A DNA stretch of 64,000 nt from NCBI GenBank assembly GCA_951406725.2, contig OX597819.1, positions 77,190,001 through 77,254,000 of the forward strand. Direction: 5' to 3'. The notes below the pieces were generated by a model, which worked only from the letters and a program-made list of their open reading frames with translations, did no database searches and was not told the DNA's origin. A program made the translations under genes and the position numbers. Of the stretch, positions 20,809 to 64,000 are shown piece by piece. Source of the DNA: Octopus vulgaris (lineage: Eukaryota). Every line of letters starts with the position of its first letter. The first letter of the stretch is position 1.

Positions 20809-20930
20809 GTAGTAGTTCTGAAAATGTACAGCAGGAGGAAGATGATCCTGTATTGGTGGAACTTGGTAAACCGAGACGTGGTGAAAATATCAAGATTACA
20901 GTTCACATAACTGAGAGCACAGAATTCAAG
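20809..20930 (+). CDS. NCX: NCX exon: end of Ca-binding domain 2, (G)SSSENVQQEEDDPVLVELGKPRRGENIKITVHITESTEFK
   Basis: Long polypyrimidine tract plus TAG; donor GTCAGT at 20931; ELGKPxxGE...ESxEFK is the NCX CBD2 C-terminal signature; phase 1 to 0. Confidence 0.93.
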
Positions 20931-24048: not shown

Positions 24049-24148
24049 AGTGTGGTTGACAAGTTACTAAAGAAAGCTAACTTATCTCTTGTCGTTAGCA
24101 CTTCTTCCTGGAGAGAACAGTTCATTGAGGCCATAACAGTCAATGCAG
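24049..24148 (+). CDS. NCX: NCX exon SVVDKLLKKANLSLVVSTSSWREQFIEAITVNA (missed by the ORF track)
   Basis: Acceptor CTTTTCAG, donor GTCAGT at 24149; 100 nt, phase 0 to 1; VDKLxKKxNL...SWREQFxEAITV is diagnostic for SLC8. Confidence 0.96.
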
Positions 24149-30305: not shown

Positions 30306-30495
30306 GTACCTATGGTTTAATATTGATGATGTTACTTTTTGTATATGTTAATAATGCAAACCTCTTTCTCTCTTTCTTTCTCTCTCTCTCTTTCCCATTT
30401 TTTTTTATTGTATGCATTGCTTCTTGCTGGAGTCTTTGGAAGACATTTTAAACTGCAAGCAGAAAAAACTTGAGTTTTCTGTTTTTGTTTTTCAG

Positions 30496-30498
30496 AAG
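30496..30498 (+). CDS. NCX: Candidate 3-nt microexon AAG, adding one Glu (NA-G to NA-E-G)
   Basis: GTTTTCTGTTTTTGTTTTTCAG|AAG|GTAAGA: strong acceptor and consensus donor 3 nt apart; frame-neutral between phase-1 junctions (GCA G|AA G|GA). Confidence 0.6.
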
Positions 30499-33400
30499 GT
30501 AAGAAAACAAACAAAGAAAAAAAAAACTATCACCAAATATCTTTTCTCATTTTCTATTAGCAATGGCTATTTCTTCACTTACCTTCTTACATCACTTTTA
30601 TTTATTTTTTTTTTCCTTTCGTTCCTTTCTTTCAAACACTTTTTAAAATCTAATTTGAAAGGCTCCTTTTTAGTACTCACTAGCTCACTCACTCTACTCA
30701 TTCTTTCTCATCTGCTTGCTAGTCAAACTTACTCTTTACTGCTTGTCTGCTAAATAGCATTATTCTACCACCTTTCTCTTTACTATTTTTCCTCTTTTCC
30801 AAGTCTTTAAACTTTAGTCTTCTGTTTTATTTCCTCACTTTTTTTTTCTCTCTTGAAAGCCCTTTTGCATAAAATATTAAAAAAAAAAAAAATAGTAGCA
30901 TTTCACACTTAAACTTTTGCTTCACTAATTATTATATATAAAGTAAAAATATATATTATGTTTAAAGGGACACGTACTAGAAATGTCCCATACCCTGTTT
31001 CATATAGGTGCTTAATGCTAATTACAGCAATGGTGAATGCCCAGATCTATATAACTAAACTGGCAAAGAAGGAAAAGAGAAGGATCAGTTTGTATAGTAT
31101 ATTTAGTTTCCACTTGATTTGTCCGGTAGTTCAAAGACTTAGTTCATGATCATAAGGTTAGGGGTTCAATTCCTAGTTTAGGCATTGCGTTGTGTCCTTG
31201 AGCAAGATAATTCATTACATGTTGCTTCAATCAACTCAGCCAAAAATGAATACCAGCCAAGTGCTTGATGCTCATGCAGCCCTCTCTCCATCCATCTATG
31301 ATATCCTGTATGCTCTGTTGAGTCAAGAGTGGAGGAACCAAGAGGGTTTCAGTGTCTACTCTCAACTGCATAGGACTCTAAAAAAAAGTAATTAACAAAA
31401 GAATAGTCTATAAATTCCTTTTTATAATTTGAAAAATTCAGAAAAATCTGAAAAATAAGGATAAATTAGCAGAATTTATTGGAAAGCATGGACAAACAAA
31501 TAGCATTATTATAAGAGGAGTAGGGGCTGAAACCGGACGTGGTTCCTCCTGATGATGTCTTGAGCTAACTGGATCCTATAAAGGAGCTGTTGTAGTAGCA
31601 GACCACAAAACACGGTTGTAATTCCTTATTATTATAATAGCTTTATTATATTTATATTATATTATTTTTAATATTATTATTATAATATTATATTATTTTT
31701 ATTAAAATTATTATAATAGCTTTATTATCAGTTGAACCATCCAACCCATGCTAGCATGGAAAGTGGACATTAAACGATGATGATGATGATGATGATGATA
31801 AACAGCAGAACACTTCCACATGGGCTTCATTGTTTGCAAAGAAGTTGATTGCTGGATCTCAACTTTAATAGATACTATAAATTGTGGAAGTTGTAAAGAT
31901 GATTTTTGAACACTCTGTATATGCTTCCAAGCCATCCTCAATTTCTGAGTGACTGCCAAAGGAGTAGAGCTGCTTTTATCTTCTCTATCTCTCTAGGAGT
32001 TATGAAAGTGGTATTATATTTAAACTGATTATATTCCCACCTCTCCTGAATAGATTAAAAAAAACAAACCCATATGTAACAATATATATTGGTTATGTGT
32101 ATAACACTGTAAGATTAAAATGGTATATTACTGCATCCATTTGTGTTGTATCCATGAATGAGGCACATAACTCTGTCTGCTCCAGTTTGCTTGGCAGACA
32201 AAAGTGCTTGTTCCACTCCTACGTAAGTGTGTAGGAGGAATTGCATGTATAGGAATAAGAACATCCAGGTGTAAAAACATTTGCTTCACCAACAATAATA
32301 TTAATGACTAAAAAACAAGCCATCACCACATACTACTTTGGAAAATGAATATAAGGCAGTAAATAAATAAAAAAAAAAGGCTTGTGTACTTTACATAATA
32401 CACATAACACACCAAACTTCAGATGCATGCTGATACTGCAAAATGAAAGAAAATATTCGAGATGATCGAATATCTTTCTGTCAGTTCATGCTTAATGCCA
32501 AGAATAATATTCTTTATTATTTGAATGGCCACTTTTCTATGCCTGCATGGGTTGGACAACATTTGTGAAGGCAGATTTTCAATGGCTGGATGCCCTTCCT
32601 TATCATCAACCCCCTTCTGTTTCCAAATTAGCTAATATTTCCCCATGGTTGAACATGTTTTCACAGATGTTTGGAAACAAAGGACGCAGTTTGTATGAGA
32701 GTAACACTTGTTTGCACCAATCATGCACACACACACACACACACATATACGTATATATCTATAATGGGCTCCATTTGGTTAGTTTCCATCTCGTAGGCCA
32801 GGGATTATAGAAGACATCTGCACAATCTGCACCACTGGGACTGAACCTAGAGCCAACTGGTCAGGAAGCAAGCTTATTAACACTTGCACCCATATATTCT
32901 AGTTAGCAGTTTTCTGTTTCCAACCACTGGGATCATGAGTAATCATCACTGAACAGTAAATTGAATTTCTCACAAGCAGGTGAATCTAGAATTTTAAGAG
33001 ACAGTTCAGTCCGTGAAAAAAAAACTTATTTTTTTTTTTTTGGGGGGGAGGGGGTTATCCTATCTGGGATGTAATGAACTGGCTCTTATGGATTTCTCTT
33101 TGAGACATAAACATCTAACAAGACTATGATTCACAAATGGACATATCAGGTAGAGAAACTAATAGTAGCCTAAAAATACATCTTTGTATACTGCAAATAA
33201 ATACTGAAATCAGATTGTAGCATACAAGGATTGATGATAATGAGACTTTGAGAGTATTGCATACAAATACATCATCGTCAACATTTAACATCCATTTTCT
33301 ATGCTGGCATGTGTTGGACATTTTGACAGGATCTGGCAAGCCTTAGGGCTGTGTCAAACTCCTGTGTCAACTTTGACATCATTTCTATGACTAGATGCTC

Positions 33401-37400: not shown

Positions 37401-40400
37401 TTTTTCCTATCAATATTCAAATATGAATCTGAAGCTTTCATGTTTTTACTAAGTTGTAGCATAAACATTCTTCGGTCAGAGATATTTTGCTTAATTCATA
37501 TGACTTAGTTTTTTTTCCAACACTGAACAAATCAAAATTATCATAAATGAATTTTTTTCTTATTTCTCTAATGCTTACAAAATTAGTTTCACGTTGCATA
37601 GGATATGAAAATTATGATTTCATGTTACTGAGATTTCTGGAAGAAAGTATGAAGAAGATATTTATATTATATCCCAAAGGGATAATAGTAAAGTGCTAAC
37701 TAGGGCTAAAAATATACATTCTTATCCACCAAGCTTCCAATCTTAAATTTCACAACCTAGGAAAATATTTCTCTGGAGTATAGGAAACATTTTATTTTGT
37801 CTCTTTCAAATATTTTCTGCTACTGCTTTTTTTTTTTTTTATCAAAAACAACAAAAACCCATCATACTTCCTGTTATCTTTCTTAACTCTTCTTCGGCAC
37901 TTAATTCATAATTCTTCATTTTCTCCATTTTCTTTGCTCTCTTCACAAATATCACATTGTGATAACATCTTCACTATAGGACTTAAAACAAGGAGTCTAC
38001 CTAACTTTTTTTCCTATCATTTCATAACTGTTAGAGGTATCAAACTAAATTACTCAAAGTAACTCTTCAATGTGGTAAAATCTGTTCTGGGAATGCTTGT
38101 TTTTACTAACACATTTTAATGCCTATCATATTAACATGGATAATATTTAACATGAAGACTATTTCTGGATTCTAAAGGATTGACTAAGTAACCTAATGAA
38201 GTCGTGATTTATTTTTTTACTAAAATGTTTCTGAATAAAAACTGTCAATTTTAATTATAGACTAAGTGATTATTTTTATAGTTTCTGTTTGCTGAAGTTT
38301 CAGATATAGTTTATTACATATTTTTTCTTCTACATTTGAGTCTACTACTCATATAATACCTAATAAAATTATTAATTATAATTATATTACTGGATTATTA
38401 ATATATATTTGCAGCTAATGAAATATCAGGGTTTTTTTTTCATTGGAGAAATATAAACTAATATTTTTCTTTTGTTCTACAAATTAAAATCCTTTCACAA
38501 AAAATGTCATATATTTTAAAATTCTTTTGACAATAAAAGTAAGTCATTTATTTACTAATGTCAATTTAAAAGTTTTTAGTCATTAGCTAGTATAAAGTAT
38601 AGCTATCAATCTGATCTTTAAATATTGAACAGTGTCATTGAAATTTGATGTTTGATTTTTTTCTTTTTTTTTGGTTTCTTAATTTCCAACATATGATATT
38701 TACCTTAGAAATATTCGCAAGTTCATTATAAAGTATTGTTCCAATATAGAATTTTATTTTCTTACTGACATTCAACATAGGTCTTGTCTATATAGTTTTC
38801 GTCTAATAATTTTTAGCTTCACAATAATGAAAGAGCTTATTTTCGTTATTTTAATACTAAAAATGTCATCTTGAGAATGCGGAAACATATATAAACCATT
38901 GTTTAATTTAATCCTATTTGACTATGAAATTGGTCTTTTTCTATGGCAGTGATAATACCACTCTCTTTTTATGAGGCACATAAGTCAAATATTTTTGGTT
39001 TAAGACAATAAGAACATATGATATATATCGTTTTTTCCAAAGGCATATGTAGCATAGCAGAAGTGGAGTGAAATTCTTTGAATCATTCTTTAAACTTTGT
39101 TATGCTCTTGCCACACAAATGGAGGTATTTCTTCTGCAACTATCATCATTATAATGTATGATAAGAGACTAGCAATCATTTATTTTAAGTGAAATTTTAC
39201 ATCATTTGCTTCAAATCTGATTGAATTTTTTTTGGGGGGGGGTGCTAATAATTTTGAAAACTCTTCATGGATAGTGTTTATTACAGTTTACTATAAATGA
39301 TTGATATTATTTAAATACTATAGAGGCAAAAAGCTATCAAGTTTTGAAATAAATTATAGCTTACTTAAAGTGGAAAAGATAAAACAAACATAAAGCCTGA
39401 GTTAATCAAACGGACACTCAGAATCAGAGACGTTCCAGTTATGACCACTCTGTATTTTTTGAAGATATAGTGTAAACAGGTGTACATTATCCCATATGTT
39501 CTTTCTTTTCCTTTCTCAAAAGACGAGGATATGATTTTTGGTAGTTTTACCTTCTGCTATATGCGTGTTGAGCAATCTTATAAAGTTTCCCTTGTTCACT
39601 CAGCTCGGTTTGTTTCGTTGGCACAACGATTATGTGAATATGAAACAAGGAATTGTAAATCAATACAATTCTGTTATATTTCTTGGTTTATCCCCCTCTA
39701 AGTTAAGCATTTTCCCATAGTTTTACCATTCGTTTAAATAACCTTAGCTTATTTTTCTAATACTTGATGCGTTTATGTAAACACAATAAGACTCTAGATT
39801 AATTTTGATAAATTAATAAACAATATCGCCGTCAACACTAACTTATTTTGAAGCATAAAATTGGCAGATAATTTCTGAATTTAAAAAAAAATTATCCAGA
39901 GATTTGAAAACGTGTTAAATATGTAATGCCTGCTTCCCTCCCTTGCGCAATGAAGCTATGGAGTTATTTCCCTTAAGTAATTTTTTTTCTTTACCATAAA
40001 ATACGAAGATGTTAACGAGAGAGGCTGTTCACATTTTCTTCCTTTTCAAAAGCAAATATAAATCATTAGTAGTTTTCATTCCAACCTAGTTTTCTTCAAT
40101 TTCAGATGAATAAAGTACATGTTAACCACCGAAACCGCCAATAATAATAATTCAAATTTGCTTCCTTCTTTGCAGCTGAAAAAGCAAATGCTGAAGACAG
40201 AAAGGAAAAAGGTTTCCTAATAACTACTCGTAGTTTAAAGTAGACACTATTACTAATATATCACATTAAATTTTTAAAAAATTCCAACGTGAAATAATCT
40301 ATAATGATCAAATACTTATGCTAAAAATATATTAATTCAACTTTATTTTTATCACATTTTATCAAATTAAATTTAAAAAATAAATCACTTAATATCTATT

Positions 40401-47164: not shown

Positions 47165-47275
47165 GAGATGATGACGACGATGGTGAAGAAGAAAAACTCC
47201 CTTCTTGTATGGATTACATCATGCATTTTGTCTGCTTGTTCTGGAAAGTGTTGTTTGCTTTTGTACCACCAACAG
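47165..47275 (+). CDS. NCX: NCX exon (G)DDDDDGEEEKLPSCMDYIMHFVCLFWKVLFAFVPPT (missed by the ORF track)
   Basis: Acceptor TGTTTTAG, donor GTAAGT at 47276; 111 nt, phase 1-1; contains the acidic tract and the PSCxDYxMHF...FWKVLFAFVPPT motif of SLC8. Confidence 0.97.
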
Positions 47276-49944: not shown

Positions 49945-50103
49945 AATACTGGGGTGGTTGGGCATGTTTTACAGTAAGCATCAGTCTCATTGGTGTTTTG
50001 ACTGCCTTCATCGGTGATTTTGCTAGTCATTTTGGCTGCACGATAGGTCTGAAAGATGCTGTAACTGCCGTTTCCTTTGTAGCTTTGGGCACCAGTGTCC
50101 CAG
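49945..50103 (+). CDS. NCX: NCX exon (E)YWGGWACFTVSISLIGVLTAFIGDFASHFGCTIGLKDAVTAVSFVALGTSVP (TM and first half of the alpha-2 repeat)
   Basis: Acceptor TCTCTTGCAG, donor GTAATA at 50104; 159 nt, phase 1-1; ALGTSVPD alpha-2 motif completed across the junction. Confidence 0.97.
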
Positions 50104-51190: not shown

Positions 51191-51567
51191 ATACTTTTGC
51201 CAGTAAAGTAGCTGCTGTAAATGACAAATATGCAGATTCCTCAATTGGTAATGTTACTGGCAGCAATGCTGTCAACGTATTCCTTGGAATTGGCATTGCC
51301 TGGAGTATTGCAGCTATTTACCATGCTGCCAATGGATCAGTGTTCCGCGTCCATCCAGGAACCTTGGCATTCTCTGTCACAGTCTTCTGTGTCTTTGCTT
51401 TCTTTACAACTCTCATTCTCGTGTTACGGAGACACAAGAAGGTCGGCGGTGAGTTGGGCGGGCCTCCCGTCTACAGACATGTGGCAGCTTCCATTTTTAT
51501 CCTATTCTGGGTCATATACATCTTGCTGACCAGTTTAATGAGCTATTGTTACATTGAGGCTTTCTAA
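51191..51567 (+). CDS. NCX: NCX last coding exon (D)TFASKVAA...IGNVTGSNAVNVFLGIG...GGELGGP...YCYIEAF*
   Basis: Acceptor AATTGTAG ending at 51190; NVTGSNAVNVFLGIG and GGELGG motifs; TAA at 51565-51567. Confidence 0.98.
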
Positions 51568-61932: not shown

Positions 61933-64000
61933 TACAAACACATATACATACACACATGCACATACTTACCTACTCACACATGTGCACTTGGCTCAACATA
62001 GTGAAATATAAGTCTTGAATTTTAACTGTGAAATAATTTGTGATTTGATGACAACTGTATTATTACTGTTGTTGTTGTGATTGTTCCTAAGTAGCCCTAG
62101 TCAAATGTGATTGAAGAATGCTATTATTGTTCTTTCGTGTTTAAACATTTAGAACTAACTCTGAGGTTCTGCATCTCAAATTTGCATATATTGGTTGGTT
62201 ATGATAATCTTTTTTCCATATTTGTTGTATGGATATGGTAGTGTTTGAAGATTTCAATTTTAATCATTTTAAAGGTTTGGCTGCATTCTAGAGGAGGTTC
62301 TGCTGCCTTTTGCATATTGTTAAAAAAATCTGTTGCTGTTAGATAAATGGTCACAAATGTTGGTGAGTAAAAGTGTTATATATATATATACACATCCTCG
62401 TTATTGTGCAAAGTTAATGTCTTTGCTTTTGAGAATCTTCATAAAGATAAAAAGGATCTTTTCATTCAGATTTCCCTGGGACATATTTTGTTTTGATTTT
62501 TATTGCTGTCAGCATTTGGTATTGTTACAATTGGAGGTGAACTCTCTGTGAAACAGGTCTGTGATGTCTTATGATTTCTAGCTGAAGCCATTTCCATTGG
62601 TTTATGTTGCTATTACCTTTGAGGAAATTATGAATGTTAACAGTATCCAATTTCCTGTCCTTTTTTAAAGCTGAGATTTTGTTGGTGTCTAGTCAAGAGT
62701 AGTTAATATTAAATATCTGAAATTATGCTTTATGAGTTTCATAGGTTTAATAATAAGATATATAACAAATCTGGTTTTGACTAGATTCTGTTGAATTAAC
62801 CCAAATTGAAACTGTCATGTCAGCATAGTCATCCTGGTAATGCTAGGGTTTAATTTTCTATCTCTGTGGTGTCTAGGTGAAACTATTGAGTACTTATATC
62901 ACGATTGGATGGGTGGAGAAAATATTGGTAAAATGTATTGCAGTAAGTAATAGAATTAATTTAGTCAAACGCAAATTTTAGAAGTCATAAAACAATTAGT
63001 CTTTAAATTGGTAAAAATTTAAATTTCTCTCTTTCTTTCTCTCCTATTCTAAATTTAGTGAACTGTTATGCTGGGTTTATATTTATGCAGTGAAGGTAGC
63101 TGAGGTGGTAGAGTGCCTGATTTAAAAGAAAATTCATTACAATATTTAGTTTCATATCTTTATGCTCTGAGTTCACATCCTGCTTGTGCCAATTTTTATT
63201 TATCATCTCCACGGGGCATGTGTATGTTTAGGCAGGCTGTTTATATGAATCCCAGTTATATATTGGGAATTGATTCAGTTTGTTTAATTTTAAACCTTCT
63301 TTTACAAAGAGAAATAAAGAAATGGCTATGAGCCTTAAAATAGAAATCAATATTTGACATCATGTTCAAAAACTTTTCCTTTCTATAATTTTAATATCTA
63401 TATCTTTTTCCACAATTGAGCTAGGACATATATATATATATCTTGTATTTCAGCTAATTATTATTATTTAGTCTTACATAATTACATCCTCATATTGTTT
63501 TTTCAACTTCTTTTATTTTTTTCAAAAAGATCCTTAATACATTTTTTAAAATGAAAACATAATTAACTACAGAGGATTCTATTTACAAAAGACTTTCATC
63601 AATCTATATATGTATATCTGTATTTAAAAAAAAAAATAATAATAATAATAATATCATTAATAAATGTGAAGAAACAAAGAAAGAAAACAACACAAAGAAA
63701 AAAAATGATAAATAAAACCAAGCCAAAAGTAAAGAACTGTAAAAAAAAAAAAAAAAATAATAATTCAAAGAGAGTGTTATCATCAGCGCAGATGTGTGTG
63801 TGTGTAAGAGAGAATGTATATGCGTATGTGTTTGTGTGTCTATGGGAATCTGATGGTCTGTCAGTACTGCCTGAAACAGCTATGAACGCACACAGGAAAC
63901 GAAAACCCAGAAGCAGATGATGTCTTTTCATCCATCACTGTATGATGTTATAAGTGCATGCATGTGTTTGTCTAAAATGCATGGTTTCAACTATGATATT

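Follow-up and report, generated by a model that had tools for sequence, protein, structure and literature searches.

The NCX locus and its coding exons

The octopus Na+/Ca2+ exchanger gene (NCX, SLC8A) has its final five constitutive coding exons in the window, a stretch of 64,000 nucleotides of the Octopus vulgaris genome (contig OX597819.1, positions 77,190,001 to 77,254,000, forward strand). The gene product has Na_Ca_ex and Calx-beta domains and is orthologous to NCX, and the coding region covers about 318 kb of G000:C6. All features described below are on the plus strand unless stated otherwise. The exon at 20809..20930 encodes the end of CBD2. It is followed by an exon of 100 nt that ends in ...ITVNA (24049..24148) and by one that encodes an acidic tract and the LPSC palmitoylation motif (47165..47275); these two are supported by the sequence, by protein models and by spliced contigs. 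Protein models also place an exon for the TM6-7 region at 49945..50103, and the last coding exon (51191..51567) is 100% identical to the O. sinensis RefSeq proteins. The O. vulgaris gene model P0038 agrees with the window at a residue where O. sinensis differs. This model leaves the last exon by a splice into window positions 62876-62947, which replaces the final transmembrane helix and is probably a mis-annotation. Three more multi-exon NCX-family loci, with about 35-59% identity, are present on G000:C4, C5 and C12.

Besides the exon that is the subject of this work, the gene has other small exons or candidates. A 21-nt cassette microexon (G000:C6:77169446-77169466, L006), located upstream of the window, encodes DTDSAHS; in octopus, in cuttlefish-like and in squid-like proteins alike, it is present in some and absent from others. 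Within the window, positions 40176-40211 (AEKANAEDRKEK) could form an in-frame cassette exon of 36 nt, whose acceptor is good and whose donor is weak; this candidate bears a loose resemblance to part of the Sepia model P0020, and no transcript support for it was found. Finally, the O. sinensis isoforms X3 and X5 contain one extra Ala after VKKP, which requires a CNG insert in the region G000:C6:77139712-77169445 (L003-L006). Judged by candidate sites at 77159715 and 77165258, this Ala may come from a second 3-nt microexon or from a tandem acceptor.

A three-nucleotide exon within the 23-kb intron

GCAG closes the upstream exon at 24148, and GAGATG opens the downstream exon at 47165. The intron in between (24149-47164; 23,016 nt) is in phase 1. 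An earlier sequence-only reading of this DNA proposed that this intron houses a 3-nt microexon that adds a single Glu before the acidic tract, and the signals are arranged as it described. A T-rich, AG-free tract leads into a CAG acceptor (30475..30495, with the CAG at 30493-30495), which is followed by the cassette microexon AAG (30496..30498) and immediately by the donor GTAAGA (30499..30504); AAG/GTAAGA matches the donor consensus at seven of nine positions. The exon is internal, is bounded by AG and GT, and falls within the 3-27 nt size range of the microexon class. Because of the intron phase, inclusion of AAG reads NA-E-G and skipping reads NA-G.

Scanning of the whole intron revealed that 30496 is the only site that matches YAG-NNN-GTRAG, and also the only AG-AAG-GT. 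The intron has 61 AG-NNN-GT sites, of which two have a YAG together with a pyrimidine tract, and the three bases are AAG in only one of these two. In simulated introns (n = 150 at each of three Markov orders), the bare motif turns up on average 0.54-0.79 times per intron, and the motif preceded by a tract with at least 80% pyrimidines at most 0.007 times. One similar 3-nt site was found on the minus strand of the window, and two looser look-alikes are present in the 71-kb upstream intron; calling a microexon from sequence alone would therefore be insufficient, and we consider the sequence by itself moderate evidence.

Transcripts with and without the microexon

Contigs that cover the upstream exon (24049-24148) were obtained from four of 24 candidate public runs, belonging to four studies. 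In all four the contigs are spliced at both ends of this exon, which demonstrates that these runs are RNA; at its 5' side, the exon is joined to that at 20809-20930 in each of them. In runs X1 (organism A) and X12 (organism B), the contig follows the genome up to 24148; AAG comes next, and after it the exon at 47165. In runs X7 and X10 (both organism A), the contig passes from 24148 directly into the exon at 47165. Hence, both mRNA forms exist, and both occur under the organism A label. The comparison of the two junctions in RNA that the sequence-only reading had proposed thus yielded contigs of either form, each in two of the four runs; contigs collapse minor variants, so that one form is seen per run, and these counts of runs are not inclusion levels. 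The phase-1 reading frames predicted for the 24148 to 47165 junction, NA-E-G and NA-G, are both found in these spliced contigs. Run X1 also contains an unspliced contig over the 24148 donor that is identical to the window and has no insertion.

A search of the intron for other sources of the AAG at the junction, such as a GC donor or a tandem downstream GAG acceptor, gave no matches in the three placements tried. The three bases seen in the RNA correspond to the better of the two sites having a YAG and a pyrimidine tract, and 30496 is the sole site in the intron able to supply AAG with canonical splice signals. Since no intermediate joining the upstream exon to 30496 was seen, the AAG is assigned to this site by exclusion, and this exclusion is tight.

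Proteins across species

The sequence ITVNAEG is present in 12 of the 265 proteins compared and ITVNAGD in six, all of them cephalopod by name or by similarity. The proteins with the Glu are four O. sinensis RefSeq isoforms, the Doryteuthis cDNA NCX-SQ1 and seven Logan proteins; those without it are the gene models of O. vulgaris, Argonauta and Sepia pharaonis, plus three Logan proteins. The squid motif that the sequence-only reading had given proved correct, because NCX-SQ1 (AAB52920.1, P0012), an orthologous exchanger, reads NA-E-G. The residue was therefore already implicit in the RefSeq proteins of O. sinensis and in a squid cDNA of 1998.

Several closely related proteins differ in this respect. 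The Glu is the sole difference between P0009, which is 99% identical to a Sepia protein, and P0123. It is present in P0011 and P0132 and absent from P0130 and P0131. Both forms also occur in a second decapod-like cluster, which shows about 91% identity to Doryteuthis and 84% to octopus. As the two forms are found in octopod and in decapod proteins, the choice between them is common to both groups at the protein level. Together with the spliced contigs, the proteins with and without the Glu bear out the proposed one-residue microexon: AAG is an RNA-validated alternative microexon, apparently coleoid-wide, at the lower size limit of its class.

The other molluscs, arthropods and vertebrates compared lack the Glu at this junction, and no AAG-type insertion was detected in the vertebrate NCX proteins compared except in the sturgeon model P0168, which is flagged as contaminated and has a two-residue insert. 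Optional inserts at the same junction were found in models from Mytilus (6 aa), Dreissena (11 aa) and Pycnogonum (6 aa) (P0204, P0242, P0244, P0251 and P0258). In the Sepia model P0020, the donor is followed by FFFVFS-E, a sequence similar to what reading through the microexon acceptor would give; this model also has ISE-GDDD, which could reflect a tandem acceptor in cuttlefish. Its extra segment was not found in other proteins; eight candidates gave three matches, all to the flanking exon.

Possible neural expression and eMIC dependence

Neural microexons of 3-27 nt are regulated by SRRM3/4 or by the eMIC domain of Srrm234 (PMC8797185; bioRxiv 10.1101/2024.09.17.613571; PMC10250204), and ion and calcium channels are over-represented among the eMIC targets described in flies (PMC8797185). 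The cDNA of the squid form containing the Glu came from a library made from stellate ganglion (PMC2217150). In a cuttlefish-like cluster, the proteins with the Glu are found on 42 and 41 contigs versus two for the protein without it, a distribution that fits broad inclusion as well as neural inclusion. On balance, we consider it slightly more probable than the opposite that inclusion is enriched in nervous tissue.

The octopus genome contains a match to SRRM_C (PF15230) of 32.6 bits, above the cut-off of 27. This match (L002, G000:C25:37317492-37317626) is probably an Srrm234 exon of the eMIC region. Upstream of the microexon, the stretch at 30348..30456 has a putative regulatory role; it contains TTAAT at 30348 and a TCTC-rich tract at 30367-30390 (a UCUC tract at -129 to -109 relative to the exon). 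TGC is present at 30355, 30413, 30418, 30425 and 30454, so that the nearest copy is 42 nt upstream of the exon, and AGs are located at -23, -35 and -38. No CTRAY branch-point motif was detected in the 200 nt upstream. The UGC signature of eMIC-dependent microexons is thus partly present and weak at 30496; among human targets, UGC is found in only 74-79% (bioRxiv 10.1101/2024.09.17.613571). Dependence of the microexon on Srrm234/eMIC is conceivable, but we would not quite expect it. The 21-nt exon of the same gene, having a TGC at -16 and an AG-free zone of 73 nt, shows a better eMIC-type signature than the 3-nt exon.

Predicted effect on the exchanger

The added Glu is positioned at the start of the acidic loop ahead of transmembrane helix 6. 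According to the protein alignment, the insertion point falls within residues 709-728 of NCX1, which were identified as an XIP-binding segment by peptide array and deletion (PMC7296346). From there it is 15 residues to the cysteine that corresponds to the palmitoylated C739, a position conserved in squid (PMC4608915). Binding of XIP, which is basic, could become stronger with an additional acidic residue. The human cryo-EM structure shows XIP against the beta-hairpin and the CH2 helix and not against the acidic loop, leaves residues 719-737 unmodelled, and attributes inactivation to the beta-hub and helix CH2 (PMC10550945). Loop length differs among species, so that one more acidic residue may be neutral. 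An AlphaFold model of P0003 was set aside for its low confidence (mean pLDDT 47.8; the loop scores below 50). We regard it as rather unlikely that the additional negative charge measurably tunes XIP- or Na-dependent inactivation, and little or no effect is more probable than a large one.

These considerations lead to the strongest competitor, which is compatible with the core of our explanation: the exon may be real and yet functionally neutral, broadly included and tolerated in a flexible acidic loop. The unmodelled loop in the human structure, its freely varying length, the dominance of the form with the Glu among the cuttlefish-like contigs and the weak eMIC motif would all fit such neutrality. 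It is opposed by the persistence of both forms in octopods and decapods and by the optional inserts that other invertebrates have at the same junction. We give it a sizeable chance, though somewhat short of an even one.

The most ambitious reading sees the intron that follows helix TMH1 as a second regulatory site of NCX, tuned by splicing and unused in vertebrates. Cephalopods (one residue), mussels (six), zebra mussel (11) and sea spider (six) would then have placed optional exons in the segment for XIP docking and palmitoylation, the single Glu would adjust Na-dependent inactivation in cephalopod neurons, and the squid-axon exchanger would be a neural microexon isoform. As a conjunction of all these parts, we consider it improbable.

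Probable order of splicing and rival origins of the AAG

Three bases are too short for simultaneous recognition of both splice sites. Hence, the two introns that flank the microexon (6.3 and 16.7 kb) are most likely removed in sequence, and the strong donor would probably act first. Of the SRRM4-dependent microexons in human cells, 58% lose the downstream intron first, and shorter ones do so more often (PMC10250204). The good donor of the octopus exon (seven of nine) would fit this order.

At recursive splice sites, a donor comes immediately after an acceptor within a long intron, which permits stepwise removal of this intron. The octopus microexon might have such a role as well: its donor would also serve recursive removal of the 23-kb intron, and use of the distal AG would yield the skipped mRNA. 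CAG-AAG-GT is a tandem acceptor that abuts a strong donor, the intron is long, and either order of splicing would leave tandem NAG acceptors, of which the distal choice gives the skip isoform; a dual role is therefore possible. AAG is, however, a weaker acceptor than the proximal CAG, and no intermediate contig was seen in X1, a weak objection since contigs drop rare forms. We think this dual use less probable still than the ambitious reading above.

A very improbable alternative is that the two forms are allelic, or come from a tandem NAGNAG acceptor of the downstream exon, with 30496 being a chance match. The acceptor allele of the X1 and X12 animals was not observed, the ISE-GDDD of cuttlefish P0020 would be compatible with tandem-acceptor read-through in that species, and the bare motif is common by chance. 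Nevertheless, the acceptor in the octopus genome is gttttag/GAG, without AAG, and the O. bimaculoides model P0134, in which this acceptor is read through, has VTVLGDD there. In addition, the three bases in the RNA exactly match the best predicted site, and both forms are found in three cephalopod lineages. The other option that the sequence-only reading had left, a purely recursive AG/GT site that adds nothing to the mRNA, would suit the juxtaposed signals in a long intron but is contradicted and effectively ruled out by the AAG in mature spliced contigs of two of the four runs, for which the intron offers no other source.

We therefore return to the alternatively spliced 3-nt NCX exon that adds a Glu, likely favoured in nerve and predicted to cause a slight regulatory change or none, as by far the most probable explanation.

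Significance and comparison with known systems

The literature searches listed no paper that describes the octopus NCX microexon; supplements could list it, for example that of bioRxiv 10.64898/2026.09.05.749416, which analyses O. bimaculoides exons. For NCX-SQ1, no other splice isoforms were reported among nine RT-PCR clones, and the available part of that paper yielded no mention of the Glu (PMC2217150). The results imply a gene-model correction for O. vulgaris, as P0038 lacks the Glu, and they identify the much-studied squid exchanger NCX-SQ1 as one of two forms at this junction. They also provide a minimal, validated and apparently coleoid-wide test case for cephalopod microexon splicing, a subject on which the literature searches yielded next to nothing. 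The most interesting lead is the recurrence of inserts at this NCX junction. If these alter inactivation, they mark an NCX regulatory site overlooked by vertebrate work and offer natural variants for probing residues 709-728; otherwise, the AAG exon is an ordinary microexon.

Like the neural microexons controlled by SRRM proteins, the octopus exon is very short and frame-preserving, has a good donor and a calcium-handling host gene, and occurs in a genome with an SRRM_C match; unlike those that depend on the eMIC domain, it lacks a UGC close to the acceptor and has a short AG-free zone. It shares with recursive splice sites an acceptor that abuts a donor in a long intron, but it differs from them in leaving three bases in the mature mRNA. 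The inserts of Mytilus, Dreissena and Pycnogonum are located at the same protein position and are likewise optional between isoforms, whereas they are longer and unrelated in sequence. Finally, the vertebrate NCX1 cassette exons A-F in CBD2 are also small and optional, and they too diversify the exchanger's cytosolic loop (PMC2408596, PMC10550945). In the octopus gene it is the 21-nt exon, and not the 3-nt exon, that sits in the CBD2 region; the AAG exon is located two exons further downstream, after helix TMH1, and its position is therefore different from that of the vertebrate cassette exons.
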